From an uncultured Planctomycetota bacterium (lineage in GTDB: Bacteria; Planctomycetota; Planctomycetia; Isosphaerales; Isosphaeraceae): a DNA stretch of 64,000 nucleotides. Under the pieces are notes generated by a model. The model worked only from the letters and a program-made list of their open reading frames with translations, had not been told where the DNA came from and searched no databases. The position numbers and the translations under genes were made by a program. Below are positions 38,609-63,900 of the stretch, in pieces (the first letter of the stretch is position 1; every line of letters begins with the position of its first letter). The stretch covers positions 1,504,001 through 1,568,000 of the forward strand of contig CAWGMQ010000008.1 of assembly GCA_963823665.1 (NCBI GenBank). Reading direction: 5' to 3'.

Positions 38609-39508
38609 ATGTTCCTTGCTCAAAAACTCCATCGTTCCGGCCCAGACCTCGACCGCGGGCGGGCAGACCGCCATTCTCTCCGCCCACGCGGACGAGCGAT
38701 CACCCTCGCCCTGCTGGCAGTTTGCGTGATCGGCGTGCCGGGAAGAGCCGCCGATGAGCCGCAGAATGAAACGCTCGCACAGCACAAGCTCAAGGCAATG
38801 GGCTCTCTCCAGGTCCTCGAGGACGAAGGCGAATTCAAGACCAAGCTCACGGAAGCGCGGCGGCTCCTGCGGCAGTTGAACTACTCGATCTTGCAGCAGA
38901 AGGGAACCATGAGCCCGCAGCAGTATCAAAAAAACCTTGAGGGAATGAAAGAAGAATTGAACCAGATGAGGTCGCAGATCAACCAGGCCAACCAGCAGAT
39001 GAACTCGCTTCCACGTTTCCGCGGCCGGCTCTCAAGCAGCTACGCACAAGAGGCGTACAACGAGCTCATGGTTTATCGAAATCAGCTCCAGGTGCAGGTC
39101 AACCAGGAATCGGCCTGGCTGAATCAGCTTCAGAGCCAGAAGGCCGACCCCAAAGCCAAGGACAAGATCGACGCCGAGGTGAACGACCGGCGCGACGCCT
39201 ATCACCAGGCGCTTCAAGACTTGCGCACACTGGCTGACTCGGTCACCAAGAAATACGCCGATCTGGAAAAAGACTCCGAGGTGAAGGATGCCATTGCCGC
39301 GCTCGGCAAAGGCAAGCGAGAAAAGCCGAAACTCGGCCCGTCTCATGATTTTTTGAACAACGTGAAACTTCTCGAGAAGCTTGAGAAGGCTGAATCCTCC
39401 GGCGATGCATTCCAGGAGAAGCCCGCGCGGCGTTCGCGCACCAAGAGTCGGTCCAAGACGAAAGATGCGGTCTCCACCACGCCCGCGAAGGGTAAACCCG
39501 GCGAGTGA
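38609..39508 (+). CDS. Exported coiled-coil hypothetical protein
   Basis: Hydrophobic segment (LALLAVCVIGV) then Gln/Glu/Lys-rich heptads; its stop overlaps the serpin start. Confidence 0.65.
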   Translation: MFLAQKLHRSGPDLDRGRADRHSLRPRGRAITLALLAVCVIGVPGRAADEPQNETLAQHKLKAMGSLQVLEDEGEFKTKLTEARRLLRQLNYSILQQKGTMSPQQYQKNLEGMKEELNQMRSQINQANQQMNSLPRFRGRLSSSYAQEAYNELMVYRNQLQVQVNQESAWLNQLQSQKADPKAKDKIDAEVNDRRDAYHQALQDLRTLADSVTKKYADLEKDSEVKDAIAALGKGKREKPKLGPSHDFLNNVKLLEKLEKAESSGDAFQEKPARRSRTKSRSKTKDAVSTTPAKGKPGE

Positions 39509-47184: not shown

Positions 47185-47489
47185 CGCGATACCTCCGTGT
47201 ACAAGCGCCAACAGGTGGCGTTTCTGAATGACGGCCGCCATGCGAGCCAAAATATACAATTTCCTGATTTCGGGAAGCGAAAGTCCCGTTTCTTGGCTTG
47301 CCGAGAGCCGGGGCGCCTTCCCGACGCATGGACGCTACGCCGTCGTGACGGCCAGGGTTCGAATCGGGGTTTGGTGTAGTCAGCAAATTGGTGACGGCGG
47401 CCGTCGCAGCCCGAATCTTTGATTCCACCGGCTGCCAGCAGCTTGAGTTGGCCCGCCGTCGCAAGTAGAATCCCTGGCAGAGCAACGGC

Positions 47490-47655
47490 GAGAGCTGGTT
47501 GCGAACAGAACCACAAGAACCTGCTTGGCGAACGGGAACCCGGTGCGAATCCGGGGCAGACGTGCTGCTGTAACGGCCGAAAGTACCTCGACAAATGTGC
47601 CACTGCGAGAGCGGGAAGGCGTCGGGGCGGCCGAAGCCAGAAGACCGGCCGGGCG
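47490..47655 (+). promoter_or_regulatory. Cobalamin (B12) riboswitch
   Basis: GGGAA-CCCGGTGCGAATCCGGGG, CTGTAA, GCCACTG..GGGAAGGC and the B12 box AAGCCAGAAGACCGGCC; upstream of B12-related genes. 5' boundary approximate. Confidence 0.9.
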
Positions 47656-47793
47656 GGGGCATCGTCGTCCTCACGATCTGGGAACCGATGCAACTGGGCC
47701 CGCCGCGATGAGCCGGCTCCCGGTTGTGTCCTTTTCCTGAAGGACATGTCCGGGAGCCGGTTGCTTTTGATGAGCGAGCGGGGAGATGGGCGG

Positions 47794-48534
47794 ATGAGCA
47801 CAGATCATGGCAAGCCGACGCCGGTGGTCATGTCGTGGAGCGGCGGCAAAGACAGCGCGCTGGCTTTGCACGAGCTTCGGAGCGACCCGCGTTACGAGGT
47901 CGTCGCCCTGATGACGTCCGTATCCGAGGAGTTTCGCCGTATCAGCCATCATGGCGTGCGCGAGGAGCTGCTCGAAGCACAGGCCGAGGCCATCGGGCTG
48001 CCGCTCACCAAGATTTACCTTCCCTCGGGCAACACCACGCCGTGCACGAATGAGGTTTACGAGGAGATCATGGCGAAGGTCATGGACAACTTCCGGTCGC
48101 GCGGCGTCTACACCGTGGGCTTCGGCGACCTCTTTCTCGAAGACCTGCGGGCCTGGCGGGAGGCAAACCTGGCGAAAGCCGGCATGACCGGACTTTTTCC
48201 GATCTGGAAACGCGACACGCACCAATTGCCGCGGCAGATCATCGCAATGGGTTTCAAAGCCATCCTTTCGTGCGTCGAAGGAAAGGTCGGAACGGGGTTC
48301 GCCGGGCGAGCGTATGACGACGACCTGCTCAACGATCTACCGGAGGGCATCGATCCCTGCGGCGAATATGGTGAGTTTCATTCGTTCGTGTACGACGGGC
48401 CGTGTTTTGGCCGGCGGCTCGCGGTGAACGTCGGCGACATCGTGACGCGGGACGGCCGGGAGTATGCGGACTTGCTCCTGGCCGAGACCCTTGTGCAGGC
48501 GTCGTGCGCCGCGAGTGAGATCCCGCCGGTTTGA
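47794..48534 (+). CDS. Dph6/MJ0570-related PP-loop ATP pyrophosphatase (adenine nucleotide alpha-hydrolase)
   Basis: SWSGGKDS, HGVR..LL..QA, FGDLFLED and DPCGEYGEFHSFVYDGP. Confidence 0.88.
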   Translation: MSTDHGKPTPVVMSWSGGKDSALALHELRSDPRYEVVALMTSVSEEFRRISHHGVREELLEAQAEAIGLPLTKIYLPSGNTTPCTNEVYEEIMAKVMDNFRSRGVYTVGFGDLFLEDLRAWREANLAKAGMTGLFPIWKRDTHQLPRQIIAMGFKAILSCVEGKVGTGFAGRAYDDDLLNDLPEGIDPCGEYGEFHSFVYDGPCFGRRLAVNVGDIVTRDGREYADLLLAETLVQASCAASEIPPV

Positions 48535-49151: not shown

Positions 49152-50291
49152 ATGCGCGTCATTTCCTTGCTGGCCAGCGGTACCGAGATCGTCTGTGGCT
49201 TGGGCGCCGGCGAGTGGTTAGTCGGCCGGTCGCACGAATGCGACAACCCGGCCTGGGTGTCCGAGCTTCCGGCGTGCACAAAACCCACGTTCGACATTTC
49301 GATGTCGAGCCGTCAGATCGACGAGGAAGTGCGGCGCCGGTTGAAGGCACGCGAGCCGCTTTATCACATCGACACGGAGCTGATCAATTCGCTGGACCCG
49401 GATCTGCTGATCACGCAGGAGCACTGCGAGGTGTGCGCCGTGACGCCGGCTGACGTCAAGCGGGCTGGGTGTGTTTCCGCCAAAGAGGTGCTGGCGTTAC
49501 AAGCCGGTAGCGTGCAGGGGATTTTCGATGGCATTTTTTCGATTGGCCGTGCCTTGGGCCGCGAAGAGAAGGCGAGCAACCTCGTGCGGACAATGAGAAA
49601 CCGCATTGATGGAGTTCATGCTGCGGTCAAGGACCGGCGGGCGCCAAGCGTCGTGGCGCTGGAATGGACCGAACCGATCTTCGCGATGGGCAACTGGGGG
49701 CCGGAGCTGGTCGAAGCGGCCAATGGCCGGCTGTTGCTGGGCGAGAAAGGTGCCTATTCGACGGCGATCGACTGGCAGCGGGTGTGCGACGCCGACCCGG
49801 AGTTCCTGATCATCGCGCCATGCGGATTCGATCTGGATCGCACCCTCAGCGAGCTGCCGATGCTTGAAGCACAGCCGGGCTGGTTTGACCTGCGGGCAGT
49901 GCGCGAAGGGAAAGTCGCTTTCGCCGACGGCAACAAGTACTTCAACCGATCCGGCACGACGATCGTGGAGACGGTGGAGATCGTCGCGGAGATTCTCCAC
50001 GGCTATGCAGCCGGCCACCGGGGCAGGGCGTGGGTAAGCTACGCCTGCCTCGGGCAGACACGATTGATTCGCGAAGCGCATGCGCGGGCATGCGCAAAGA
50101 ACTCGCCAACCTATGTCGATCCGGTGACGGGATACGACGTTTTCACGGCTGATTTCTTGAGGCGACGTAGCGAGTGCTGTGAGAGCCGGTGCCGGCACTG
50201 CCCTTACTCGGCGGGGCACGTTGATGAATCAAGCGCACGCAAGAACTGCCAGACTCACACGAAAGATGGCAAAGAGTCGGTGGCGTTTTGA
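49152..50291 (+). CDS. BtuF-like cobalamin-binding protein fused to a C-terminal DUF5522-like Cys motif
   Basis: RVISLLASGTEIVCGLG..LVGRSHECD, PDLLITQ..CEVCAV, EWTEP and YFNRSG; tail YVDPVTGY.VFT..FL.RR..CC...CRHCPY. Confidence 0.82.
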   Translation: MRVISLLASGTEIVCGLGAGEWLVGRSHECDNPAWVSELPACTKPTFDISMSSRQIDEEVRRRLKAREPLYHIDTELINSLDPDLLITQEHCEVCAVTPADVKRAGCVSAKEVLALQAGSVQGIFDGIFSIGRALGREEKASNLVRTMRNRIDGVHAAVKDRRAPSVVALEWTEPIFAMGNWGPELVEAANGRLLLGEKGAYSTAIDWQRVCDADPEFLIIAPCGFDLDRTLSELPMLEAQPGWFDLRAVREGKVAFADGNKYFNRSGTTIVETVEIVAEILHGYAAGHRGRAWVSYACLGQTRLIREAHARACAKNSPTYVDPVTGYDVFTADFLRRRSECCESRCRHCPYSAGHVDESSARKNCQTHTKDGKESVAF

Positions 50292-50446
50292 CCTGTCGCT
50301 GAGAACCGCCACGCGCACCGTCTGCGGGACCTTTTGCGCGGTCGGCCGTCGTTTCCAATCTCAAGCGCCGGCGCCATCCCTGGCCGTGCCCCCGGCGGCG
50401 AATTAGCGATCTCGCCGCTGGAAAATGGGAATGTGCTAGGGTATAA

Positions 50447-50644
50447 GTGAAAACTGGAGATCTGAGGGACAGAATCCCGATAATCGAAGGTCCTTATCGC
50501 GGGGTTTCCGCAAGAGCCGCCCACTTCCGAGACGTCGCCGAGTATGTCCGTTGCGAATGGGATCGGCCCGGAGTTCGAGTTAGATGGCCAGGGAAATCTG
50601 CTTCTCAGATCGAAACGTCGTCCATGATTATTTTGGTACATTGA
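50447..50644 (+). CDS. Short ORF, possibly a frameshifted N-terminal extension of the HPRT
   Basis: 65-aa ORF overlapping the HPRT ORF in another frame; no motif recognised. Confidence 0.3.
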   Translation: MKTGDLRDRIPIIEGPYRGVSARAAHFRDVAEYVRCEWDRPGVRVRWPGKSASQIETSSMIILVH

Positions 50645-51174
50645 TCTGTGAGCTCATTTCTACGGAGGAGATCTCGGAGAGAGTCAAGGAGATGGCGGCG
50701 GAGATAGGAACGGACTACGCCAACAAGACCCCTCTGGTCGTCGGCATGTTGAAGGGCGCCTGGATCTTCATGGCGGACCTTGTGCGTGCAATCCCTATCC
50801 CGGTGGAGTGTGATTTCTTGAAGGTGTCCACGTATGGACTAGCGACGTCTTTCTCGGGTCACGTCGACCTGCAGCTTGACCTCCGACGGGACATCCGGAA
50901 CGAGCACGTGCTGATCGTCGAGGACGTGATCGACACGGGGGAGGGCACGACCTGGCAGCTCAACCGCCTTCGCGAGAAGGGCCCAGCGAGTTTGCGTGTC
51001 TGTGCTCTAATGAGCAAACCTTCACGACGAAAGGTTCCAGTCGAGATCAACTATTTGGGGTTCACGATCCCTGACTGTTTCGTGGTTGGCTATGGCATTG
51101 ATAAGGGCGAGCGATTCCGCGAGCTCGATTACGTTGGGTATTGCGCCGCGGTCGATGTAGTAGTGGCCGACTGA
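50584..51174 (+). CDS. hpt: Hypoxanthine phosphoribosyltransferase-like protein
   Basis: VGMLKGAWIFMADL, DFLKVSTYG, PRPP loop VLIVEDVIDTG and FVVGYGID..ERFREL. Confidence 0.88.
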   Translation: MAREICFSDRNVVHDYFGTLICELISTEEISERVKEMAAEIGTDYANKTPLVVGMLKGAWIFMADLVRAIPIPVECDFLKVSTYGLATSFSGHVDLQLDLRRDIRNEHVLIVEDVIDTGEGTTWQLNRLREKGPASLRVCALMSKPSRRKVPVEINYLGFTIPDCFVVGYGIDKGERFRELDYVGYCAAVDVVVAD

Positions 51175-51274
51175 CAGCGCTCAATGCACCCGACCAAGGC
51201 AGGGCGCTTCTTGCTGTCTCGTGGATGAGAATCATCAGCCGGACCGCGCGAGTTTCCCACGCAGGTGGTGAAGG

Positions 51275-51928
51275 ATGAATACCGCACACGGGATCCCAGC
51301 ATGCCCCTTTTGCCTGTACATCATTAAGGGGCCCGTGACGGTGTTGTCGGAAGACAGCACCTGTGTCGTCCAACGAGGGTCGCACTTCGCCCTGATACCC
51401 GACGACGCGCCCGTCGTTCCCTTTCACCTCTTGGTGGTTAGTTGTAAACACTCGTGCAGGAGCATAATGGCGAAGCAAGACCAAGGGGGCGAACTCGCGG
51501 ATATGAAGGAGGCCGTCAGGCTTTTTAATCGCCGGACGACCGGGTTCGAGACAATGTTCTTTGAGCATGGCAGTTGCGTGGAAGAGAGCGGCTCTTCGTG
51601 TCTGGTTCATGGGCACCTCCACGCGGTGCCGCTCTCACAAGAACATCGCACAGCAGTCTTCCGCGAAGTATTGCGCCTCTTGGGCTGCCCTGACGCCGCG
51701 CAGATAGAGTCCTCGGCTTACCTTTACGCTGAATTCGTTGAAGGTCAAGGTCTGTACTGGTCAGACGTATTGAAAAGGCGACAGTTTTTCCGACTCCTTA
51801 TTGCGCAAGCGACGGGCAATGCAGATCGCGCCAGATGGCAGACTTGTTTGTCCAACGAGAGGCTGTCTGAAGCGGGCGCACGATGGAAGAATGAGTGTGT
51901 AAAGGCTTGGAGAGACGGCGCGAGCTAG
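51275..51928 (+). CDS. HIT-like (Cwf19/CwfJ-type) nucleotide hydrolase
   Basis: CPFC, P..P.HLLVV..KH, FFEHG and HGHLHAVP histidine triad. Confidence 0.75.
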   Translation: MNTAHGIPACPFCLYIIKGPVTVLSEDSTCVVQRGSHFALIPDDAPVVPFHLLVVSCKHSCRSIMAKQDQGGELADMKEAVRLFNRRTTGFETMFFEHGSCVEESGSSCLVHGHLHAVPLSQEHRTAVFREVLRLLGCPDAAQIESSAYLYAEFVEGQGLYWSDVLKRRQFFRLLIAQATGNADRARWQTCLSNERLSEAGARWKNECVKAWRDGAS

Positions 51929-52080
51929 GGCAGATCTCGACTCGGCGCTCGACGAGCGCTGCGAACGATCAGGGGCGTCGCAATCCGCACGGGTCGCGCT
52001 ATAGAACTTGGCCCTCGTTAGTCACTCGTGAGTTGTGCCTGCGATGCACTCTGCCTGATTAACCCCGGTGTTCTCAGAAC

Positions 52081-53349
52081 ATGACGTTTCCAACGGGGTT
52101 CGCGGTTGATTATGACGGGAATGGGATCCCACGGAAACTTCCGTTGATCGAGTTTCTGGCGCGATCCCTCGGCACGACGGTCAGCCGACCACTCCGTGAC
52201 TTCCTCTTCCTCGGAGTGCAACACCTCACCGGCTCCGCCGTGCCACTCTTCCACGCACTCGCCGATGCCGGCATCCCGTACCATCGAATGTTCCTCGTCG
52301 GTAAAGCATACTCTTCCCACCCGAAAGTAATATCGTGTTTGACCGGGCTCGGTTGTCGGCTATCGAACGACGCTACGATGCTCTCGCCCTCAAACCCGTA
52401 CGAGGACGAGATCGAGTCCGAGATCGAACGGCAATTGACAAAAGTGTCGGGACTCTTGGACCGGTCGGCCGATATTTCCGCTCTGGTATTCGACGAGGGG
52501 GGCAAGGCGGTACGCGCCATTCATCAGACGTTCCGCGGCCAGGCACGACGGTTTCACTGCGTTGAACAGACGACGCGGGGCCTGCGTGAATTTACGGGCG
52601 GGTCATTGCTTTGCCCGGTCATCAACGTGGCTCGTAGCAACGCGAAGATGGAAATCGAAGCGCCGATCATCGCCAGGTCGATGGTCGCGGCGTTGGAGGA
52701 GGCCCGTTCTGAATGGCGGCCGATTTACGACGCTCCACTCAACGACGCCCTGGTGATCGGTTACGGAGTCGTTGGGCGAAACCTCGTGAAAGAACTCCTT
52801 TCGCGCGGCTACCGGGTGCGAGTATTCGAGAAAGCGGAATATGTTCTCGACTCTCTCCCTTCGGGGGAAAAGGCGTCCCGGGTGGAGAAACTCGAAAGTG
52901 AGCTTTCCGAAGTACCAATCGTAATGGGATGCACGGGTGGCCTATGCTTATCAGACGCCGCCTTTTGCGCATTACGTGACGGCGCGCTTCTTGTTAACTG
53001 CGCTTCCTCCGACCTTGAGTTCGCGGCGTGGAGGTTCCGGACGATCGGTAGGGTGATCCACACGCGTTCGACTTCCGGAGATCACGAGTTGCAACCTTGG
53101 AAGAATCTGTACTCTGTGCAGAGCGGCCTGCGGACGTTTTACCTCGCCAACGGTGGATTTCCTATCAATTTCTCGGGTAAGCTCGACCCAATTGCTCCAG
53201 AGGAAATCCAGTTAACGCGGGCATTGATGTATTCGGCGGGCCTTCAGGCCGTCGCAACGCAAGAGGCCGGACTGTTGCCGCTTTCAGAAGGAGCCCAGGT
53301 TATGATCAGTGAATGGATCCGCGGCCGGGAAGCGCACGAACACCACTAA
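52081..53349 (+). CDS. Divergent S-adenosylhomocysteine hydrolase-like NAD-binding protein
   Basis: QHL, DEGG (cf. DDGG), EQTTRG (cf. EETTTG), PVINVARS..K, Rossmann IGYGVVG, GCTG, LVNCASSDLE and G.PINF. Confidence 0.72.
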   Translation: MTFPTGFAVDYDGNGIPRKLPLIEFLARSLGTTVSRPLRDFLFLGVQHLTGSAVPLFHALADAGIPYHRMFLVGKAYSSHPKVISCLTGLGCRLSNDATMLSPSNPYEDEIESEIERQLTKVSGLLDRSADISALVFDEGGKAVRAIHQTFRGQARRFHCVEQTTRGLREFTGGSLLCPVINVARSNAKMEIEAPIIARSMVAALEEARSEWRPIYDAPLNDALVIGYGVVGRNLVKELLSRGYRVRVFEKAEYVLDSLPSGEKASRVEKLESELSEVPIVMGCTGGLCLSDAAFCALRDGALLVNCASSDLEFAAWRFRTIGRVIHTRSTSGDHELQPWKNLYSVQSGLRTFYLANGGFPINFSGKLDPIAPEEIQLTRALMYSAGLQAVATQEAGLLPLSEGAQVMISEWIRGREAHEHH

Positions 53350-53400
53350 TGCTCTCGGGGAGGTTTTGCCCGGAAACTCACTCCCGCGGAGAACCGAGCG

Positions 53401-56400
53401 TTGCAGCGTGTTACGATACTCTTCCTGGCAGCGAACCCGTCGGACGAGGCGCGCCTGCAGTTCGACAAGGAGCGACGCGCGATCGAGGATGAGATCCGAA
53501 AGAGCGTTTACCGTGACTGGTTCAAGCTCCCACTGTCTTACGAGCCAAACATCAATTCCGACCGCCTTATTGAGGCGTTCAGGCAGCACAAGCCTCAAAT
53601 CGTTCATTTCGCTGGCCATGGCACGAGTTCGAGCGAGATTATCCTTCAGAACGCCGCTGGGACGTCCCGGCGTGTCCAGTCCGACCAGTTGGAGGAACTA
53701 TTCCGCCTCCACGGACAAGGTGTCAAGCTCGTCGTGCTTAACGCCTGCTATTCCAGTTCCCAAGCTAAGGCCATCACACGCCACGTCCCCTGCGCAGTCG
53801 GGATGCAGCGTGCCATCCCTGACGCGACGGCCGTCGCCGTAGCCGTGACCATGTACCAAGGTTTGGCAAACGGCGAATCAGTCCAAAATGTTTTCGATAC
53901 CGCTCAACTCCAGTTGAAGCTTCAAGATCCTGATTCGGATGGCGCAAATCGCGACCTCATTCGGCTGGGTGGAAGGGCTGTTGAGTCCGAGAAGCTCCTG
54001 GTACTTCATGTCAGAGCCGGGACCGATGCGCACCGCATGTTTGTTGTCAAGTCGGTCGTTGCCGTGGTGGACGGAAAACGCGAACCTCGCCGTGAGGATG
54101 GCGGATCGGTAAGCGAAGACGCACGTGATGCAGCGATGGGCGCTGCGGAAACTTCTTCCAGCCCCGCAGCCAGGGCAGGAGAATCTTGCCAACTCGCGGG
54201 GGTGTCAACCGGCAAAAACCGGTTCGAAGCCGACAGGCGGACGACACCCCGGGAGGACTGTGACGAGATCGTCGACGTCTCGATCTTCTTCGGCCGGACG
54301 CGCGAGCTGAAGGAACTTTGCCGGGCTGTGCGCAAGCGGCGAGTTCGAGTGATCGCGATTCTAGGGTTCGGAGGGATCGGAAAGACCGCGCTTTCAGAAA
54401 AGTTGGTGGAGCGTGTAAAGCCGGGATTCCAGTTCCTCTTCAGGAGGAGCCTGAAAGACGCTCCACCAATCGAGCAATTGCTGGCGGATTGCATTCGGTT
54501 CGTGTCGGGCGAGCCTGACATCGCGGTTCCGAGAGACGTGAACGGGTTAATCGGCATGCTGATCAAGTACTTGGGCCAGCATTCCTGCCTGATCGTCTTG
54601 GACAACGCTGAATCGATCCTCCAGACGGGCCGTCGTGTGGGAACATACAGGGACGGCTACGAAGGCTACGGGGTTTTGATGCGCAAGGTTGGAGAAACGG
54701 TCCATCGGAGCTGTTTACTGATCACTAGCCGAGAGAAACCCGAGGAAATCGCCACGCTTGAGGGCGTCGGATCCTCGGTCTTTTCACTGAATCTGGACGG
54801 TCTCGGAATGCGGGATGCGATCACGCTCCTGAAGCGGAAGGGACTCTCCGCCCCACGGGGTGAGTTGGAGACCGTGGTCGGCCGGTACAAGGGGAACGCG
54901 CTTGCGCTCATGATCGCCGCGAGCTACATCCAGGATACCCCGGGGGGGAGTGTCGCATCGTTCCTACGAGAAAACGTCTCCGTCGTCGGGGACATCCGCG
55001 AATTGGTGTGCCAGCAGATTGAGCGGGTTGCGCCACTCGAGCGCACGGTTGTGTTCTGGCTGGCGATCAACCGCGAACCCACATCCCTCGATGAGCTTCG
55101 GTCCGACCTTAACGATGTTCTGAGGTCGGGGGCACTGGTCGACGCTCTACACTCGCTCAATCGACGTTCATTGATCATGCCGACCGCTTCCAAATTCACC
55201 CTGCAACCGGCCGTCATGGAGTTTGTCATCGAGATGCTTATTGAGCGGGTCTGCGAGGAGGTGACCGGAGGCGCTGGCGATCTCCTCGAGACGCACGCTT
55301 TGATGAAAGCTCAAGCAAGCGACTATATCCGAGAGAGCCAGGTGCGTCTGATAGTGAGGCCCCTGGAACAATGCCTGTCATCCAAAGGAAGATCCCGGAT
55401 TCCAGCACTGGTCAAGACACGGCTTCAAGTCCTACGCGAAACCCAGCGGGACGGCTTCGGCGCCGGAAATCTCCTGAACCTGCTCGTACAGGTGAATGCC
55501 GACCTCACGGGTTTTGACTTCTCGCACCTTACAATCAAACAGGCCTTCCTCCAGGGAGTCTCCCTCAACGACACAAACTTCGCGCACGCACGCTTTGAAA
55601 AATCCGTCTTCACCGACACCTTCGGGAGCGTTACATGCGTGCGATTCAGCCCGGACGGGAGCGTAGTCGCGACGGCCTGCGGTGATGGTACGATCCGCTT
55701 CTGGGGCGACGACGGCACCCACCTCCGCGTCATACTGGCCCATAGCGACTGGGTGCGCTCGGTCGCCTTCCACCCGGAGGGCGCCATCCTGGCAAGCGCG
55801 AGTGACGATAGGACCATCAGGTTGTGCCGGGTTGATACCGGGGAGTTGATAAGAGAGTTGCGCGGGCACAGCGACCGCGTCTTCGCGGTAGCCTATTCGC
55901 CGGATGGCGACCTGCTCGCGTCTGGAGGAGGGGACGGTGTCGTCCGAATTTGGCGGTCGGTGTCCGGAGAGTCGCTTGCGGCCCTGCAAGGGCATGTCAG
56001 AGCGGTGCGTGCCGTGGACTTCAGCAGGGTTAGCGACAAGCTGGTAAGCGCCGGCGAAGACGGAGTAGTTATCGTGTGGGAGCTGACCACTCACAGCAAA
56101 TTGGCGACATACAAACAACATTCCGGTCAAGTGAGCGCGGTCGCCTTCAGTCACGACGGGCGGTTTATCGCAAGCGGCGGCCAGGATCGAGTCGTGAGGA
56201 TTTGGAACTCGGAAAGCGGGGAAACCGTGGCGGAATTGCGCGGACACACCGACGCCATCCTGAGCCTTGCCTTCCGCGGAGATACCCTGGAACTCGCCAG
56301 TGCGGGCATCGACCGCCTCGTCAGGATCTGGGACGGCGCCGAGCGGAGCGCCCCCAAGAGCCAGGGAATTCTGAGGAAAGCCTTGGAGGGCCACATGAAT

Positions 56401-57504
56401 TGGGTGAATACTGTCACATACAACCGGACGGCAGACGCGCTCGCCAGCGGCGGCGCCGACCAAACAGTGCGGATATGGAACGCAGATTCGGGCAACCGCC
56501 TGAGGACGCTGCAGGGGTACGGGAGCCCGGTGTGGTCTCTCGCCCTGAACAGCAGCGACGCAGTGCTTGCGAGCGGCCACGGTGATAACACCATAAGGCT
56601 CTGGCAGTTCGACTCTCGCACGTGCTGCCGGATTCTCCGGGGACATTCCAACTGGGTCTGGGCCGTCACATTTTGCGACGACCAACTGCTGGCGAGCGCG
56701 AGTGGTGACGGGACTGTACGCTTGTGGGATATCGGGACTGGTAGGTGCATCCGGCAGCTGCTCGGACATTTCTCCGGCGTACGCGGCCTCGCTGTTTCGC
56801 CAGACGGCGCCCGCCTCGCGAGCTGCAGCCACGACCAGACAATCCGCATTTGGGATCTTCGGACGGCCGCGTGCGTGCGCGTGCTCGAAGGGCACACGAA
56901 CCTAGTCGAATCGGTGGCGTTCCACCGAGACGGCAGCACGCTCGCTAGCGGCGGGGCCGATCAATCCGTCGTTCTCTGGAACGCCGATACCGGCGAGCGG
57001 AAATGCGTCCTTGGGCGAGACCTCGGCAGGATTCGGCTCACGAAATTCAGTCCTGACGGCGTGGGAGTGGCTGCTTGTAGCGACGACACAACGGTTCGTA
57101 TCTGGGATATTCGAACGAACGAGTGTGTTGCACTCTTGCGGGGTCATAGCGATCGCGTCACTTCCCTCGACTACAGCCCAGACGGCAAATTCTTGGTCAC
57201 GTGTGGTGTCGACTGTACTGTGCGGCTCTGGAGGACCGCCACCAGCGAATGCGTCGCTATCCTTTACAGCCATCTGGCCCACGTCCGGACGGTCATCTTC
57301 GACCATGCCGGTCGGTCGGTCGCCAGCGGGGGGCTCGACGAGTCGATCAAAATCGTCAAGATTCTAACATCAGAATTACCAGTCACGATAAGAATAGAAA
57401 AACCATATCATAATATGAATATTACTAATGTTCGTGGCTTAACAGAGGCACAGACGATGGCCCTGAAATCGCTCGGCGCGATCGACGATCGCTCGCCCGC
57501 CTAG
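53401..57504 (+). CDS. CHAT (caspase-like) - NB-ARC/STAND NTPase - pentapeptide - 14x WD40 protein
   Basis: ILFLAANP, HFAGHG and VLNACYS (CHAT His/Cys); FFGR..EL, GFGGIGKT, LIVLDNAE and LITSRE (STAND); 14 GH..WD-type repeats; C-terminal PY..MNIT.V.GLTEAQ. Confidence 0.92.
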   Translation: MQRVTILFLAANPSDEARLQFDKERRAIEDEIRKSVYRDWFKLPLSYEPNINSDRLIEAFRQHKPQIVHFAGHGTSSSEIILQNAAGTSRRVQSDQLEELFRLHGQGVKLVVLNACYSSSQAKAITRHVPCAVGMQRAIPDATAVAVAVTMYQGLANGESVQNVFDTAQLQLKLQDPDSDGANRDLIRLGGRAVESEKLLVLHVRAGTDAHRMFVVKSVVAVVDGKREPRREDGGSVSEDARDAAMGAAETSSSPAARAGESCQLAGVSTGKNRFEADRRTTPREDCDEIVDVSIFFGRTRELKELCRAVRKRRVRVIAILGFGGIGKTALSEKLVERVKPGFQFLFRRSLKDAPPIEQLLADCIRFVSGEPDIAVPRDVNGLIGMLIKYLGQHSCLIVLDNAESILQTGRRVGTYRDGYEGYGVLMRKVGETVHRSCLLITSREKPEEIATLEGVGSSVFSLNLDGLGMRDAITLLKRKGLSAPRGELETVVGRYKGNALALMIAASYIQDTPGGSVASFLRENVSVVGDIRELVCQQIERVAPLERTVVFWLAINREPTSLDELRSDLNDVLRSGALVDALHSLNRRSLIMPTASKFTLQPAVMEFVIEMLIERVCEEVTGGAGDLLETHALMKAQASDYIRESQVRLIVRPLEQCLSSKGRSRIPALVKTRLQVLRETQRDGFGAGNLLNLLVQVNADLTGFDFSHLTIKQAFLQGVSLNDTNFAHARFEKSVFTDTFGSVTCVRFSPDGSVVATACGDGTIRFWGDDGTHLRVILAHSDWVRSVAFHPEGAILASASDDRTIRLCRVDTGELIRELRGHSDRVFAVAYSPDGDLLASGGGDGVVRIWRSVSGESLAALQGHVRAVRAVDFSRVSDKLVSAGEDGVVIVWELTTHSKLATYKQHSGQVSAVAFSHDGRFIASGGQDRVVRIWNSESGETVAELRGHTDAILSLAFRGDTLELASAGIDRLVRIWDGAERSAPKSQGILRKALEGHMNWVNTVTYNRTADALASGGADQTVRIWNADSGNRLRTLQGYGSPVWSLALNSSDAVLASGHGDNTIRLWQFDSRTCCRILRGHSNWVWAVTFCDDQLLASASGDGTVRLWDIGTGRCIRQLLGHFSGVRGLAVSPDGARLASCSHDQTIRIWDLRTAACVRVLEGHTNLVESVAFHRDGSTLASGGADQSVVLWNADTGERKCVLGRDLGRIRLTKFSPDGVGVAACSDDTTVRIWDIRTNECVALLRGHSDRVTSLDYSPDGKFLVTCGVDCTVRLWRTATSECVAILYSHLAHVRTVIFDHAGRSVASGGLDESIKIVKILTSELPVTIRIEKPYHNMNITNVRGLTEAQTMALKSLGAIDDRSPA

Positions 57505-57526
57505 GCACGAGAACCGAGGTAACACC

Positions 57527-58234
57527 GTGAAAAGAGTTGGTCCGCGAGCACGCATCGAATGTGTTGTCGTCGATCTCGACGGTACGATTTTGGACCGCCC
57601 GGCCTCTCTTCCGGGCGAGGCCAATTCCGCGGCGTTGAGCTCTCTCTTATCGAAGGACGAGTGCCTTCACGACCTGAGCGAGCTCATGCGAAAAGTATCG
57701 ACAGCCGTGACAGTGGGAAAGGGAATTCTGGCTTCCAAGACCTGCCAATTCGAGACGCTCCTCGACCATCTAGGTCGGAACGACCGCGGTCTGGCAGACC
57801 GCCTGTTCAATCAGTATATGCAAGTTTACCTCTCGCGCTGCCAACTGTACCCCGAGGTCAAATCGGTACTCGAAGCGCTCGACGCGCGCGGCGTTCGCGT
57901 CGGACTCATCACGAATAGCCCCGACGACATCGTCACCGAACTCTTGCGGCACTTTCATGTCGATCGACATTTTGATTTCATCGTCGCTGCGTCCCTAATT
58001 CGGCATCCCAAGCCGTCACAGGCGTTCACTCGCGCCCTAGGTGAACTGGCCGGTGTGCCCCCGAACGTTCTCGTCCTTGCTGGCGATGGCGACGAAGATG
58101 AGGCCACAGCCGCGGCGATGGGAGCGATCTTTTATCGCGTGGTTAGGGGCCGTAACCAGCCATCATCAGCCGCTCCTTTTCAAGTGGCCGACCTCGCGCA
58201 GCTGTTCGACACGTGCTTCCCGAACGGTGTCTGA
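57527..58234 (+). CDS. HAD family hydrolase/phosphatase
   Basis: Motif I DLDGT, motif II ITN, motif III KP and motif IV GDGDED. Confidence 0.88.
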   Translation: MKRVGPRARIECVVVDLDGTILDRPASLPGEANSAALSSLLSKDECLHDLSELMRKVSTAVTVGKGILASKTCQFETLLDHLGRNDRGLADRLFNQYMQVYLSRCQLYPEVKSVLEALDARGVRVGLITNSPDDIVTELLRHFHVDRHFDFIVAASLIRHPKPSQAFTRALGELAGVPPNVLVLAGDGDEDEATAAAMGAIFYRVVRGRNQPSSAAPFQVADLAQLFDTCFPNGV

Positions 58235-58357
58235 CCCCCACAGAGGCCGCACCCCGAGTCCCTGAGCCGCTCTTCGCTCGACGTAGCGCACCCAAGACCG
58301 ACGCCGCAAAAAAACCTCGCATCTCGTGCTAGGTTTCTGGCCGCGCTCGGCTACTCA

Positions 58358-59442
58358 TTGGTGACCGAACGAGAAGCTGAATCATTCACCCGTTACGACG
58401 GGAGACGATCACATGAATCCGCGGAAAGCGCGCCATTCGCACCGGAACCCTCTCCTGCACCTCTGGCAGATCGCACCTTATCGTGCCGGATATCGCGAGC
58501 GCCGCTCGGCGTCCTGCAAATCAAGGCGAACGTACCCGCGACAGTTTCGGGCGTCACGATAAGCGGTGGCAAGGCGGAAATCGGCGCAGGGGTGCTGAAC
58601 AGCGGCAACGTCAACCTGTCGGGCGTGGCGGTCAGCGGCAACGTCGCCGGGATCGACGGTGGCGGTGTGTTTAATAGCGACGGCGAACTCACGATGAACC
58701 ACTGCACTATCTCTGGAAACTCGGCGCAACACGGCGGAAGTGTGTACGTCGGCAGAAGTACCGCGCTCACGGATCTCGACAACAGCACGGTCAGCGGCAA
58801 CTCTGCGTATGATGGCGGTGGCTTGTATAGCGGCGTCGGCGCTCCCCTCGCGATTTCCGATTGCACGATCAGTAGCAACACCGCCCAGAACGTGGGTGGC
58901 GCCCTCGACAACGGATGGGGGGGACCGCCTCGCTGACTGACCGCACGATCAGCGGCAACGTCGCCGACTCGGAGGGCGGCGGCTTCTACAACGGTCGTTA
59001 TACAACTCTCAGCGAGACCAACTGCACGATGAGCGGCAACTCCGCCTCCGCCAACGGAGGCGGCGCTTTGAATAACTTCTACCACGGCAAGGTGTTCCTC
59101 ACGAACACCATCGTGGCGGGTAACACCGGGCCAGGAAATGCACCGAGCGATATTACTTTTAGCCTTTTCTTAGGCAGAAGGACGCCCATCCGCGGCCAAT
59201 ACAACTTCATAGGACCGGGCGGGTCGGGCGGAATCCATGGCGGCGGCGGAAACATCATCATGACGAATCTCGCCAAACTGGACCTGGGTCCGCTGGCCAA
59301 CAATGGCGGGCCTACCCAGACAATGGCCCTGTTGCCCGGAAGTGCGGCGATCCACGCCGGCATCACGGTCACTGGTCACACCACCGACCAGCGTTTTTCA
59401 CCAATCGACTCGCCCCCCGACATTGGCGCGTATCAGACTTAG
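58358..59442 (+). pseudogene. Fragment of a right-handed beta-helix / polymorphic-membrane-repeat protein with choice-of-anchor-Q-like end
   Basis: Repeated TISGN.A..GGG.YN; LGPLANNGGPTQTMALLPGS and TDQR..DIGAYQ. No signal peptide; frame break near 58930. Confidence 0.7.
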
Positions 59443-59734
59443 TTCGCAAGCGACGCTCAAACCCATGTCACCGCCGAGGACGGAACGACTTCCGTGGCCG
59501 ATCCAGATGGTCGTGATGGACCTCGACGGCGGCCACCGATCGAAGATCCACATGCCCGACGCGAGAATAACCGACATGCCGGACTCGCGATGATGCCGGA
59601 CCTTGGTCGATCGCACTCTCGCGTCGAGAGGCCTGACTGAAGAATGCGGAGCAGTCGCACTCTGGCTGCATCGACCAAAATGCCCCTGGTCCGATCTCTC
59701 GAACCAGGGGCACAGTCGCAATTCGCGTCTGCGG

Positions 59735-60386
59735 TCACAGAAGGTTGACGACCTTTTCGGCGAGGCCCTTGTCGCCAAGGACAATGTTGAGCTTGCCGCC
59801 GGCGGCTACCTTCTCCAAGACTTCCAGCTCACGCAGCCGCATGAGGGTTGGGCTCTCCGCCAGCAACTTGGCCGTGTTGGCCTGGCTGCGAATAGCCGCC
59901 GTCTCCTCTCGACGCGCGATCAGGTTGCTCTCGGCTGCCTTCCTGGCTTCCGTCACCTTGTTCATCAGGTCCTTGATCTCCCCGGGCAGAATCACGTCAC
60001 GAATGCCGACCGTGGCGATCGCGAGACCGAGCTCGCCGGCCCGACGCCGGAGGGTCTCCTCGATCTCGCGGGCAACGGCGTCCTTGTCCGTCAGGAGAAC
60101 GTCGAGCTCCCGTGCCCCGACCGCGGCCCGCAGAACGAGCTGTGTGTCGCGATATAGCGCCTGCCGTACGTCGTCGGTCTGGCTGATCGCCTTGCGAGCG
60201 TCGACGATCTTGTAAGTCGCCACAGCGTTCAACCGCAGTGTGACCTTGTCGGCCGTCATGATCTCCTGACCGCCGACGTCGACCATCGTCTCCCGCAAGT
60301 CGACCTCGACCACCCTGGCGTCCGCCGGGCCCTTCCAGAACGCGTATTCACCCGGCTCGAGCGTGCCAGAGTAGCGGCCGTCGATC
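59735..60386 (-). pseudogene. 5'-truncated slipin / SPFH (band 7) protein
   Basis: IDGRY..LEPGEYAFW, GQEIMTADKVTLRLN, IRDVILPGE and RREETAA.RSQANTAKL...PTLMRLRELE. Resemblance stops abruptly near 60387. Confidence 0.8.
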
Positions 60387-60702
60387 GCAGAAGGTGAAGC
60401 GTTCGCGGCTCACACGAGAAAGCACGGAGAAGCGCTTGAGCCGTGGTCTCCCCCGGATCCGAAGCGCGAGAAGCATGGCCTTCGTCCCAAAGCGAGCCTT
60501 GAGATCCATCAGCCAGCCGCTTTGCGCTGCTTTGCCGAGCGAGCGCCGCGGCGGAACCTGCGTTCTGCAAGGTGCCTGCGCGTGCTGCCAGTAACCCCGG
60601 CGAACCAGAGTTGTGGCCGAACCAACGAACGTTCACCTCCTTTGGGCTTCGTGGTCGAACAGGTCTTGCGACCGTTTCGTAGAGAGTCGATTCAGCGCCG
60701 AC

Positions 60703-60773
60703 GTGTGGTACGGGAGTCGAACCCGTGACAGCCAGATTATCGGTCTGGTGCTCTACCCCTGAGCTAACCGTGC
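60703..60773 (-). ncRNA. tRNA-like RNA (Ile GAT anticodon) with a degenerate acceptor stem
   Basis: Minus strand folds as D-arm GCTC-AGGGGTA-GAGC, anticodon arm CCAGA-CCGATAA-TCTGG and T-arm ACGGG-TTCGACT-CCCGT. Acceptor GCACGGT/ACCACAC has 3 mismatches, position 33 is C not U, and no CCA is encoded. Confidence 0.8.
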
Positions 60774-60955
60774 TGATGACCTCCGTTCAGAACCCATGTA
60801 CGGTACAGGCGGAGCCAAACCCTCTCGGGTGACTCGCCTGCCGCTGGTCGGATGCCATCACTTCATTTCAGATCCGCGGCGGCCTCGAAATGTTCGCGGA
60901 ACAGAAAATAAGACTCACCCTCGAAGCGGATGAGGGTGTGCACCGCGCCGAACAT

Positions 60956-63900
60956 TCAAGGGGACTTCTTCGGCCGGGCAAGAGATGTCTCGTCTAACTC
61001 TTCGAGCAGTTTCTTGAAATCCTCCCGCGTGCGAAACGCCTCGAGTGCCGCCTCGGTGCGGAAGGCGCTCGCGTTCCGGAAGCCGACTGTCGACGGCCTT
61101 TCTCAGCAGAGCCATCGCCTGGGCCGCTTCGGCCTTGCCGTCGTCGGCCGACACGCCGGCTCCGTCCTTCCCGGCCAGGCCGGCGAGCGCCGCGCGGCAG
61201 CACGCTGTCTCGAACCGCTCTTCGCCCGACCGCGAGGTGAGCCCGTCATACAGCCCCAGTGCGCCGGCGGGTATCGGCCGACCCACCCGTGAGGTCGCTC
61301 AGTCGCGCAGGGCCAATCCGCGCCGTCGCAACGAGTGGGCCAGGAGGCTGCGGTACCACGGATTGGGGTTTTCCTTGACCAGCTTTTCGTGGATGGCGAT
61401 GGCCCGTTCGTAATCTTCGCGCGCCTCCGCGAGCCGGCCGAGCGCACGAATCACGTCGCCGAGGTAGTAAAGAGCGCCGGCGAGGCCAACCTTGTGGCCT
61501 GGGGCATTGGGGTTGTCGTCGCTCAGCTTCTGGTAAAGCGCGATGGCGTTGCGCTCCTCGGCCTCAGCCTCCGCCGCCCGGCCCGTCTGCGACAGCAGGA
61601 TACCGAGATCGAGGTGATTATTCGCGAGCTCGGCGCGAATGCGCGGTGACGGAGGGATCAAGGTCGGCCAGCTTTTGATAGATCGCCATCGACTTGCGGT
61701 ATTCCGCTTCCGCCTCAGGCAGCTTGCCCGACTCGCCGAGCAGATAGCCCAGATTGTGGCGGCTGCGTGCCAGATCACTCTGGAGCTTGGTGACGGTGGG
61801 GTTGTCGTCGGCAAGCTTTTGTCTGATCGCCATCGCCTTCTGGAACTCAGCCTGAGATTCCGCGGGCCGGCCCGTTTGATGCAGCAGGATCGCGAGCGAA
61901 GAATGGCTGTCCGCCAGGTTGCCGCGGTAATCGGCGACGGTGGGATTCTCTTCGGCCAGCTTCTGATAGATCGCCATCGACTTTCGGTGCTCGACTTCCG
62001 ACTCCGAGGCGCGGCCGGTCTGGCTCAGCACTTCCCCGAGGTTTCTGTGGCTCAGCGCCAGGTCGTTCCGGAATTCGATGACGGCGGGATTATCGTCGGC
62101 GAGCTTTTGCTTGATCGCCATCGCCTCGCGGAACGCGGCTTCCGAGTCTTTGGATCGGCCCGCGATCGTTAGCAGCAGGCTGCCGCGGTTGTTGGAGATG
62201 ATCCCCAGGCGACGCCGGATTTCGGAATTAGCTGGGTTTTCCTGGGCCAGCTTCTGATAGATCGCTAGCGCCTTGCTGTATTCGACGTCGGCCTCCGACG
62301 GCCGACCCGTTCTTCCAAGCAGATTGCCGATGCGGTTGATGGTGTTCGCCAGCTCGCGCCGGGCCTCCATCGTTGCGTCGGGCGCCTCGGTCAGCACTTC
62401 CTGGTCAGACCGAGCCTGGCGAAGGACCTCTAGCCCGTCGGCGGCGTGGCCTGTGCTGTAGAGCAGGTAGCCAAGCCGAGACCGGCAGTCGGCCAGGGCG
62501 GCCCGTACCGGGGCGGTCGCCGAGGCGCTCGCAGCCGGGGCTTCGAGCAAAGCCTCGGCCTCCCGATACGTTGCCACGGCGTCGTCGGTCTTGCCGACTC
62601 CCTCGAGAAGGGTCGCGACGGCCGTCAGGCTGCGACCGACATCGGCGCTGGTCTCGGCGTCGGCGTTCGGGCTCGGCCGCCAGCGCCTTCCTTGCGGCCA
62701 GCACCGCGCGGTGCGCCGCCAGGGCCTCCTCCTTGCGTCCGACCTTGTCGGTCAGGTCGGCCAGCTCGAAGTTCGAGCGCCGTCAGCGCCCGCCGTGAGG
62801 CCAGGTCGGTCTCGTTGCCGAGCAGGGCCGACAGCTTGCCGTAGAAGTCGGCAGCCGATTTCAACAGCCGGTCGCGCAGCTCCTTGAACTGGTTCTGCTT
62901 GAGCAGGAAGTCCTCGCTGACACCCGTGTGGAACGTCTTGATGGCGTCGACGGCGAGATTGTAACGCGCCTGAACCTTGATGTTGGCGGTGGTCAGGTCG
63001 GCATTGGCCGCGGCCAGCGCCGTGTTGGCCCGTGCCGCACGGATCAGACCCCAGGTGGTGCCCACCATCCCCAGCACGAGCGACAGCATGACCAGGCCCG
63101 CCGCCACAACCTGGCCCTTGTGCCGGCTGGCGAACTTGCGGAGCCGATAGCCTGCACTTGGCGGCCGCGCCTCCACCACCTCGTTGGCCAGGTAGCGCTG
63201 GATGTCGCGGGCCAGGCCGCTGGCCGTTTCGTACCGTCGGTCGCGCTCCTTTTCCAGGCACTTCATCACGACCCAGTCCAGGTCGCCCTCGCAGCATCGT
63301 CATCAGCTTGCGCGGCTCGGTCTGCCGCAGCGCCGCCTGCGACGGCAGCGAAGCGTCCGATCGACAGCCGCGTCGAGGGCTTCGAAGGCTCTTCCTCGCG
63401 AATGATCCGGATCATTTCCGAGAACGCTGCCTTCTTGAGCCGTGCCGCGTCGGTCGGGCGTAGGCCCGTCAGCAGCTCGTACAGGATCACGCCCAGCGAG
63501 TAGATGTCGGACCTCGTGTCGACGTCTTCTCCCGAGAATCCCGCCTGCTCGGGCGACATGTAATCAAGCGTGCCGACCACCGCGCCGAACTGCGTGGCCA
63601 GCGTTTCATCGGTCAGCTTGCCGGCGGTCGCCTTCGCCACTCCGAAGTCGATGACCTTGGGCACCGGCTTGCCGTCAATCAGCGTGACCAGGATGTTGGC
63701 GGGCTTGAGGTCACGATGGACAATTCCCTTCTGATGCGCGTGCTGCACCGCCTGGCAGATCGGTACGAAGAGCTCGAGACGCTCCGTCGGCGTGAGCTTC
63801 GCGTCGTCGCAGAATTTCGAGAGCGGTAGGCCGTTGACCAGCTCCATGACGAAAAAGGGCTGTCCGTTCGGCGTCAGACCGCCGTCGAGCACCTTGGCGA

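Follow-up and report, generated by a model that had tools for sequence, protein, structure and literature searches.

A CHAT-STAND-WD40 protein among nucleotide-converting enzymes in an Isosphaeraceae genome: a candidate conflict locus marked by a HIT protein and an SAH-hydrolase-like enzyme

Do bacterial NLR-like sensors work with dedicated small-molecule enzymes? The locus described here offers a tractable test of this question. It lies in a stretch of 64,000 nucleotides (contig CAWGMQ010000008.1 of assembly GCA_963823665.1, positions 1,504,001 to 1,568,000; hereafter the window) from the 16.46-Mb genome of an uncultured Planctomycetota soil bacterium of the Isosphaeraceae. The block consists of five genes, all on the forward strand between 50584 and 58234, which encode in order a hypoxanthine phosphoribosyltransferase (HPRT), a HIT-superfamily protein, a divergent S-adenosylhomocysteine (SAH)-hydrolase-like NAD enzyme that we name SAHHL, a CHAT-STAND-pentapeptide-WD40 protein and a HAD phosphatase (Table 1). 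An earlier note, made from the letters alone, had described five co-oriented and closely spaced genes, and the intergenic gaps of 100, 152, 51 and 22 bp are in agreement with it; the start that it proposed, 50447, belongs to an open reading frame (ORF) of 65 aa in a different frame, the ATG of the HPRT gene being at 50584. Its domain assignments for the five proteins are upheld by profiles, motifs and predicted folds, and each of the five retains intact catalytic motifs. We lean, by a little, towards reading the block as a conflict or defence locus, with a nucleoside- or nucleotide-converting enzyme set that works with the NLR-like sensor.

Table 1. Features of the window in order of position, followed by the neighbour sets of the SAHHL clades (for the clades, the location column gives the loci)
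Feature	Location	Strand	Basis or remark
Genome-specific variable segment holding the block, 10.9 kb	50060..60956		DNA synteny break against the same-genus genome G001
Second, divergent hypoxanthine phosphoribosyltransferase (HPRT), 196 aa	50584..51174	+	TIGR01203
HIT-superfamily nucleotide hydrolase/transferase, 217 aa, with a ~100-aa C-terminal extension of CwfJ/CWF19L1 type	51275..51928	+	Motif, profile, model
SAHHL, divergent SAH-hydrolase-like NAD enzyme, 422 aa, marker of the wider locus family	52081..53349	+	Profile, model
NLR-like protein, 1367 aa: CHAT protease, STAND NTPase, pentapeptide repeats, WD40 propellers	53401..57504	+	
CHAT (caspase-like) effector domain	53401..53928	+	Pfam CHAT; PADLOC 'chat' PDLC02988, E 3.9e-10
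STAND NTPase module, residues 285-720	54253..55560	+	49-50% identity to the L004 and L047 modules
WD40 beta-propeller sensor region	55621..57411	+	Pfam WD40 and beta-propeller families, E down to 4e-196
HAD-IA type phosphatase, 235 aa	57527..58234	+	PF00702 (5.5e-19), PF13419
tRNA-Ile(GAT), right edge of the variable segment	60702..60773	-	Rfam, 51.1 bits; ARAGORN
Clade 1: STAND-WD40 with HIT and HAD	window, L004, L047		
Clade 2: PPDK_N/PEP-utiliser-like protein (about 827 aa), HD, HIT, NACHT-HEAT STAND	L005, L058, L059, L061		
Clade 3: ~275-aa uncharacterised protein and NUDIX	L051, L053, L062		
Clade 4: cNMP-binding cyclase, then SAHHL-HIT	L052		Pycsar PycC PDLC00734, E 1.3e-71
Clade 5: SIR2-cNMP-binding protein, SAHHL, HIT, in overlapping reading frames	L112 6617-9777, IMG/VR contig		
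Clade 6, basal: acyltransferases (L060, L066, L068), TPR-CHAT proteins (L056, L066)	L056, L060, L066, L068		

The evidence that carries this reading is the recurrence of the gene order. SAHHL relatives were collected from 25 genome loci, 53 metagenome loci and 1 viral-contig locus (79 in all), and tblastn with the window proteins found, beside SAHHL, the HIT protein in 12 of the 79, the STAND module in two and HAD in one. The earlier note had reckoned with the possibility that these genes never co-occur in other genomes; they do so, in the same order. An Acidobacteriota metagenome-assembled genome (locus L004) carries SMODS cyclase, HIT, SAHHL, STAND and HAD, and a 6.5-kb metagenome contig that ends inside its STAND gene (L047) carries HIT, SAHHL and STAND. 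Compared with the window, the identities in L004 and L047 respectively are 53 and 51% for SAHHL, 49 and 50% for the NTPase module and 44 and 42% for HIT, and the HAD protein encoded after the STAND gene in L004 is 49% identical. Around the STAND gene, between SAHHL and HAD, the window and L004 have gaps of 12-96 bp or overlaps. The three block SAHHLs form one clade (SH-like approximate likelihood-ratio test, SH-aLRT, 100), and so do the three NTPase modules (SH-aLRT 99) in a quick maximum-likelihood tree of the 3 block rows and 50 of the 118 usable homologues. The order HIT-SAHHL-STAND-HAD has thus been preserved since divergence to about 50% identity, with the effector and the upstream gene replaced. 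In place of CHAT, the STAND proteins of L004 and L047 have a DUF4062 N-terminus, and DUF4062 is co-annotated with TIR in one Atlas cluster (score 0.88), which we retain as a lead only. The upstream gene of L004 matches the CBASS Cyclase model PDLC00822 at E 2.8e-129, and this locus looks like a defence island; the HPRT of the window would be a lineage-specific fifth gene in the position of that CBASS-type cyclase. Directly after the conserved block of L004, positions 16764-21173 (-) encode a 1469-aa TIR_2-nSTAND1-WD40 protein. An HPRT gene at G041:C1 was considered as a flank of L004 and set aside, being on a separate contig (178 kb vs 720 kb).

A wider view of the family was obtained with a profile search of 1.84 billion representatives, which returned 1765 SAHHL-family clusters at E <= 1e-30. 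Canonical SAH hydrolase (SAHH) stays outside this threshold, because 398 of the 401 genomes in each phylum sample gave no match. We annotated 18 loci of the close subfamily (at least 32% identity), leaving out 9 more on contigs of 3.7 kb or less, and the neighbour counts cover 19 annotated loci, the window included. The ORFs of related loci were taken by a greedy longest-ORF rule, by which at least two were mis-called (L028 and L059), and the L028 row of the SAHHL tree is to be ignored, as it represents the wrong ORF (branch length about 10). HIT adjoins SAHHL in 10 of the 19 loci, and a STAND or related NTPase lies within 5 kb of SAHHL in 9, the types being WD40, NACHT-HEAT, PNP-NB-ARC-TPR and ATPase_2. 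TPR-CHAT proteins are found in two loci (L056 and L066) and NUDIX proteins in three; the two NUDIX proteins compared with PADLOC both match the candidate PDC-S07. Each SAHHL clade has its own neighbour set. In clade 2, the four loci listed in Table 1 count as one lineage because their NACHT-HEAT and HD neighbours are 88-99% identical, and a BrxHI-type (BREX) helicase adjoins one of them, L058; in the same clade, L006 has the PPDK-like protein and HIT only, and in L063 the CBASS 'PN-superfamily effector' model matches the N-terminal part of a STAND of PNP-NB-ARC-TPR type (E 1.5e-57). In clade 3, L053 has additionally an ATPase_2-type NTPase.

The HIT+SAHHL pair is therefore repeatedly linked to immune-type sensors, effectors and second-messenger parts. 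By sequence comparison, the conserved unit of the block is HIT, SAHHL, NLR-like STAND and HAD, and the core across the wider loci is HIT and SAHHL. This supports the earlier proposal in part. Its immune role linked to nucleotides fits the contexts found (cyclases, SIR2-cNMP-binding protein, PNP-STAND, NUDIX of PDC-S07 type, BREX helicase). The idea of the four enzymes as a conserved unit fails on HPRT, which is beside SAHHL in none of the 79 related loci by tblastn. Two members of these clades deserve description in their own right. The ~275-aa protein of clade 3 is encoded directly upstream of SAHHL in L053 (682-1524) and L062 (4742-5560), with 44% identity between the two. The locus L112, on a viral-collection contig of 43% GC, is a tight operon of three genes for a SIR2_2-cNMP-binding protein of 437 aa and for SAHHL and HIT, which are 32 and 39% identical, respectively, to those of the window; the stops and starts overlap.

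The sensor of the window is of a familiar build. CHAT is found at residues 19-176 as a compact match (E 7.1e-15) with readable His (HFAGHG) and Cys (LNACYS) motifs. Weak NACHT, NB-ARC, nSTAND1 and AAA_16 matches cover residues 292-476, and a P-loop (GFGGIGKT) and a LIVLDNAE motif are likewise readable in the protein; pentapeptide repeats follow at residues 700-739, and WD40 is matched in 13 stretches. As judged from these motifs, the protein has the STAND P-loop core with Walker A and B motifs, together with the N-terminal effector (CHAT) and C-terminal repeat sensor (WD40) by which Avs-like proteins are recognized. The PADLOC models matching it are 'chat' and HEAT-ARM_XIII (on WD40) only, with no Avs or bNACHT model among them. 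No other protein of the genome belongs to its NTPase clade, and the next paralogs are 26% identical. More than 2000 homologues of the STAND module are annotated as NB-ARC or NACHT, the top ones being cyanobacterial HTH-NB-ARC-pentapeptide-WD40 proteins of about 1171 aa.

This abundance raises another explanation, namely that a self-contained Avs-like STAND and an unrelated accessory cassette for nucleoside metabolism are independent neighbours sharing an island in a variable hotspot. We regard it as unlikely. STAND-module homologues vastly outnumber the rare SAHHL, so that most of them must be without SAHHL or HIT partners, and the swap of the effector domain between loci, as well as the genome-specific hotspot with its gene fragments and tRNA, would be expected from such neighbours. 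Furthermore, a promoter/terminator scan of 49800-58800 gave 2 promoter-like signals against 2.5 expected and 11 terminator-like signals against 8.2 expected, and since this is no better than chance, operon status is not demonstrated. The explanation does not account well, however, for the shared position of the STAND gene, which both the window and L004 have flanked by SAHHL and HAD, at about 50% identity and with tight gaps: gene order rarely outlasts such divergence otherwise, and a coupling of STAND and enzymes is favoured for that reason. Nor does it account for the other, unrelated STAND types adjoining further SAHHL clades.

Several observations nevertheless weigh against the reading as a coupled conflict locus. 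(i) The NTPase module is 45-49% identical to hundreds of cyanobacterial proteins, a level equal to that of its L004 and L047 partners, and since SAHHL is much too scarce to be the partner of most STAND homologues, the STAND family works without the block enzymes. (ii) A single inherited island may account for all three block loci, so that they do not count as independent of one another, and L004 and L047 are close to each other; the trees come from quick searches supported by SH-aLRT values alone, and the STAND row of the window has a long branch (0.87). (iii) By tblastn with the window's domain, CHAT-STAND is beside SAHHL in none of the 79 loci, HPRT is absent from the same set as said above, and the single HAD lies within clade 1. 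The effector swap (CHAT vs DUF4062), read from the sequences, argues against a specific or direct protease-enzyme coupling; a protease activating the enzymes directly is unlikely on this ground, and the earlier note's proposal of a purine-derived molecule that may gate the STAND protease, or be gated by it, is weakened too. (iv) Four of the 19 annotated loci (L006, L028, L060 and L068) are without an immune-type neighbour. (v) Some SAHHL homologues are fused to a SAM (S-adenosylmethionine) methyltransferase, which is C-terminal in P0223 and P0226, or to an AIR-synthase-like domain (P0209, with N-terminal AIRS/AIRS_C), and these fusions fit plain SAH or nucleoside metabolism. (vi) The dip in GC content of the block stays within 1 standard deviation (sd) of the remainder of the window.

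SAHHL is the marker of the family. It scores far below the AhcY equivalog (TIGR00936, 28.1 bits vs a cut-off of 497.6), and the canonical ahcY gene is elsewhere in the genome (618 bits). The family profile covers both domains of SAHH chains (E 1.9e-27), archaeal S-inosylhomocysteine hydrolase chains being among the structures matched. The AlphaFold2 model (pLDDT 91.9) superposes in Foldseek on many SAHH chains with TM scores of 0.70-0.74 (about 0.72) at 16-20% identity, so the model predicts the two-domain SAHH fold with its NAD loop. Residues H48, D138, E162, T164, K189, E193 and the GxGxxG loop are invariant, as is Ser309, which aligns where SAHH and its homologue AgmF carry an essential His. 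The full catalytic set of SAHH thus seems to be lost at the second His. With the NAD loop and H48, D138, K189 and E193 kept and this His changed to Ser, we expect SAHHL to perform an NAD-dependent 3'-oxidation of a nucleoside, with a different chemistry or leaving group at C5'.

This prediction brings in a third explanation, a cassette of nucleoside-analogue biosynthesis (PRTase, that is phosphoribosyltransferase, HAD and SAHH-like enzyme, as in the last steps of angustmycin) whose antimetabolite product would serve competition or antiviral purposes. The PRTase would make a nucleotide, HAD would strip its phosphate, and the SAHH-like enzyme would dehydrate the sugar or give it a new function. 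The precedent is AgmF of the angustmycin pathway (PMC8599513). Although homologous to SAH hydrolase, AgmF does not take SAH as its substrate and dehydrates a nucleoside by means of tightly bound NAD; AgmE, which has a PRTase domain, and the phosphatase AgmB act in the same pathway. In a comparison made with the published residues of AgmF, its H56, D129, K184 and D188 correspond to H48, D138, K189 and E193 of SAHHL; its essential H299 corresponds instead to the invariant Ser. Of the angustmycin-type set given in PMC8599513, the PRTase, phosphatase and SAHH-like members are present in the block, and the epimerase, pyrophosphokinase and LOG-like enzyme are absent from it, as are a transporter, a regulator and a sugar-building enzyme. 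As HPRT is not conserved beside SAHHL and the neighbours of SAHHL elsewhere are immune-type, not biosynthetic, we consider such a cassette improbable, somewhat more so than the neighbours without functional link.

The HIT protein is a member of the HIT superfamily, with the HxHxH motif on a HIT fold. Pfam alone gave only a sub-threshold CwfJ_C_1 match; the residues H112-x-H114-x-H116, C10 and FEHG96-99 are invariant across 11 of 11 aligned orthologues, and the family profile matches PDB chains of Hint, Fhit and CWF19L1 (best E 6.4e-9). The AlphaFold2 model (pLDDT 77, its first 27 residues poor) has CWF19L1/Cwf19, Ap4A phosphorylase and Fhit as top Foldseek matches. No PADLOC model, that of ThsC included, matched the window HIT protein at E <= 0.01. 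The HAD protein has all its motifs (DLDGT as DxDGT, TNS, K and GDGDED), HAD motifs I-IV being DxDxT, T/S, K and GDxxxD, and on these grounds it is a phosphatase of subfamily IA; it falls below every NCBIfam equivalog cut-off.

The HPRT gene, in contrast with HAD, clears its equivalog threshold (TIGR01203, 178.9 bits vs 150) and contains VLIVEDVIDTG, which we take to be the PRPP (phosphoribosyl pyrophosphate)-binding motif. A housekeeping HPRT is found elsewhere in the genome (G000:C4) and is 95% identical to that of the same-genus genome, the block HPRT being only 36-38% identical to this housekeeping group; it therefore has the appearance of a xenolog-like second copy. The relative G015 likewise has a second HPRT-like copy; it follows an ORF of 551 aa on a contig of 3 kb, in what may be a tilS-hpt arrangement. 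An ordinary salvage operon for purine or SAH, leading from SAH or S-inosylhomocysteine to nucleoside, base and, by HPRT, nucleotide, with an NLR-like gene inserted, would agree with the equivalog score of HPRT, with the archaeal S-inosylhomocysteine hydrolase chains among the matched SAHH structures and with the SAM methyltransferase fusions. Canonical ahcY and a housekeeping HPRT are already in the genome, however, and the block is missing from 40 of 40 relatives, the SAHHL family being as rare in each phylum sample as reported below; such an operon is very improbable. The earlier note's own reservation, that the enzymes could be orthologues of ordinary salvage genes of close relatives, is likewise answered by the absence of SAHHL from these relatives and by the distance of the block HPRT (36-38 vs 95%).

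The block is accessory. SAHHL was found in 0 of the 40 relatives searched, which include the same-genus genome (16.1 Mb, 84% complete), three of them yielding fragments of 19-22 bits that we treat as spurious. In two samples of 401 genomes, one from the phylum of the window and one from Acidobacteriota, three genomes each had a family member at E <= 1e-30, the query's own genome included in either count. DNA synteny with the same-genus genome G001 breaks off at about 50060 and is restored at 60956, and the counterpart of this variable segment in G001 measures 3.8 kb and encodes a BlaR1-M56/HlyD protein. Composition gives a weaker signal: the GC content of the block is 0.557-0.597, and its GC at third codon positions (GC3) is 0.647-0.702, compared with a mean of 0.714 (sd 0.070) in 41 long ORFs from elsewhere in the window, so that the description of the block as less GC-biased is true only in a weak sense. 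No tRNA is present in the syntenic G001 locus (L041), no att-like direct repeats were found around the variable segment and its tRNA, and no integrase was seen in the right flank. Searched against sequencing runs, the block gave, among the runs listed, small shares in soil metagenome DNA runs only, and no RNA run. Taken together, the scale tips modestly towards a horizontally acquired block that is a conflict locus, probably anti-phage.

How the parts of such a conflict locus could work together may be sketched as follows. The WD40 propellers would bind an invader-derived ligand, and the STAND NTPase would then oligomerise and switch on the N-terminal effector, the CHAT protease here and a TIR-like DUF4062 in the relatives. 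The enzymes would form a short pipeline on a small molecule derived from an adenine or purine nucleotide, with a nucleotide conjugate as its starting point and a modified nucleoside and a base as its products. Enzymes of the HIT superfamily cleave off 5'-nucleotidyl groups or transfer them; HAD, NUDIX and HD enzymes remove phosphates; and HPRT uses PRPP or pyrophosphate (PPi) to form or break the bond between purine and ribose. HIT could thus cleave a 5'-nucleotidyl-X bond to give a nucleoside monophosphate, from which HAD (NUDIX or HD in other clades) would take off the phosphate; SAHHL with its bound NAD would oxidise the 3'-OH and drive an elimination or addition at C4'-C5' of the nucleoside, and HPRT would return or remove the purine base. 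The role that we favour for this pipeline is the conversion or clearing of an immune small molecule, which would set a threshold or reset the response, a toxic or depleting nucleoside product being the second choice. Conversion or clearance is favoured because the pair adjoins signal synthases and signal-binding effectors and because the HIT protein ThsC is proposed as a signal switch in Thoeris (PMC8565338). L052 and L112 cut both ways, the first having a cyclase with no evident effector and the second an effector with no evident synthase.

A bolder version, to which we give little credence, is that HIT+SAHHL is a new immune enzyme module that makes or remodels a messenger of nucleoside type, such as an adenine nucleotide, ADP-ribose or SAH in a 3'-oxidised, 4',5'-modified or thioether form. 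Varied readers and effectors would be served by it (NLR-like STANDs, SIR2-cNMP-binding proteins, CD-NTase or Pycsar-type cyclases, PNP-STANDs). In the window its partners would be an NLR with a CHAT protease and a captured HPRT, the latter providing the purine or taking it away. If the conflict reading is right, SAH-hydrolase-type redox chemistry on ribose joins the immune nucleotide enzymes (cyclases, TIR, SIR2, PNP and ring nucleases), and the HIT+SAHHL pair becomes a genomic marker for unrecognised defence loci in the large and poorly catalogued genomes of soil bacteria. A parallel exists in plant TIR-NLR immunity, which depends on nucleotide-derived messengers, and the block suggests a small-molecule arm of bacterial immunity that has not been described.

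Beyond the close subfamily, SAHHL homologues take further forms. P0008 and P0009 have an unassigned N-terminal domain of ~260 aa with a sub-threshold Pfam hint of 2H-phosphoesterase only; its identity as a HIT-like domain was ruled out by BLASTP against the window HIT protein (E >= 1.9). Many further homologues have an unassigned N-terminal extension of ~150 aa, for which an Atlas search with that of P0183 gave no usable match. In the distant group (24-31% identity; Legionella, other Pseudomonadota, CPR bacteria and archaea), the annotation covers six ORFs of L007-L009 only. Homologues of 23-25% identity occur in several Legionella species (L020, L022, L025, L026 and L027), each adjoining a divergently oriented ORF of about 705-740 aa.

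The flanks of the block in the window have a mixed character. On the left, the B12 operon of the earlier note exists as a cobalamin riboswitch at 47509-47667 (+, 72.4 bits) ahead of a set of DUF6580 and BtuF-like genes. The riboswitch lies inside the 5' part of a long ORF (47419-48534), whose true start is probably downstream of it; it precedes a Diphthami_syn_2-like domain, and the genes for DUF6580 and BtuF-like+DUF5522 proteins follow. Further upstream are eukaryote-like domain proteins, with NYN+LOTUS at 37544-38530 and an ankyrin-repeat protein at 43821-45083, and a full-length serpin at 39505-40755 (E 6e-119). On the right, the decayed gene fragments of the same note are plausible, as a Band_7 ORF is truncated (59735-60313, -) and a TPR gene is split in two overlapping ORFs of 171 and 319 aa (61299-62577, -), which in G001 form a single ORF of 624 aa; the TPR family has many diverged copies in the same-genus genome, with DNA matches of 65-73%. 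Between 58358 and 59442 (+), ORF fragments with a weak Chlam_PMP repeat match have many DNA matches of 65-80% scattered through the same genome, and a 37-nt unit is repeated five times at 58629-59063 with a spacing of about 80 nt. The segment 59723-60926, which includes the Band_7 ORF, matches another contig of G001 (G001:C5:5850114-5851858) at 88-90% and looks like a relocated or duplicated segment.

As regards novelty, no PADLOC model matches the four enzymes of the window. Term searches in the main texts of Kaur et al. 2020 and 2021 (eLife) found no SAH-hydrolase-like enzyme, HIT-family enzyme or PRTase, and term searches in the available text of a 2026 STAND survey, a 2025 preprint on TIR systems and a 2026 paper on domain-centric discovery found none of these components. 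Among ranked, non-exhaustive literature listings there was no paper joining SAH hydrolase with defence. As far as PADLOC models and this non-exhaustive survey show, these results suggest that the block is undescribed, in line with the earlier note, whose author knew of no named system of this composition.

Set beside known systems, the block has partial likenesses with several. SAHHL shares with canonical AhcY the two-domain fold, the GxGxxG NAD loop and the His, Asp, Glu-Thr, Lys and acidic catalytic positions, and differs from it by its low identity (16-20%) and by the second catalytic His being Ser. With AgmF (PMC8599513), the likeness is that of a divergent SAHH homologue placed alongside a PRTase-domain enzyme and a phosphatase, with a nucleoside substrate; the genomic context of SAHHL is immune-type and not a natural-product cluster.

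Among immune systems, Thoeris is instructive, as a HIT-family enzyme rides there too with an immune system of NAD/nucleotide signalling. According to the PADLOC 2021 paper (PMC8565338), the HIT protein ThsC accompanies 2.4% of Thoeris systems, is proposed as an enzyme that turns the signal on or off, and defines the HIT-bearing variant called 'type II'. The HIT protein of L058 matches the ThsC model weakly (E 2.3e-5), and the DUF4062 of the L004 and L047 STANDs is a lead in the same direction by its co-annotation with TIR. The window block differs in having no ThsA or ThsB (no TIR, SIR2 or SLOG), and an SAH-hydrolase-like partner is foreign to Thoeris. With CBASS and Pycsar, the likeness lies in gene position, as HIT-SAHHL immediately follows the CD-NTase in L004 and the PycC-like cyclase in L052, and comes after a SIR2-cNMP-binding protein in L112. 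Effectors or accessory genes are what this position normally holds. In contrast, the window block is without a cyclase and without a cNMP-, SAVED- or CARF-type sensor, HPRT taking that position; the CD-NTase (SMODS) present in L004 has no match in the window's five proteins, and PycC with a cNMP-binding effector is not found in the window block.

A further likeness is with Avs/AVAST and other bacterial NLR-like STANDs, which have in common with the window protein the tripartite build of effector (here CHAT), STAND P-loop NTPase and sensor (here WD40), and with the block an accessory, patchy distribution. The window STAND, known here from its sequence alone, differs in being embedded between enzyme genes in a conserved order. 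The conflict systems in the main texts of Kaur et al. offer the broader frame, since they comprise STAND, CHAT, TPR and WD40 proteins with swapped effectors in very large genomes, and nucleotide-processing co-effectors such as PNP, TIR, NUDIX and cyclases. The NLR-like protein of the window belongs to a known kind, and the enzyme-linked block is a variant of nucleotide-centred, STAND-based conflict systems.

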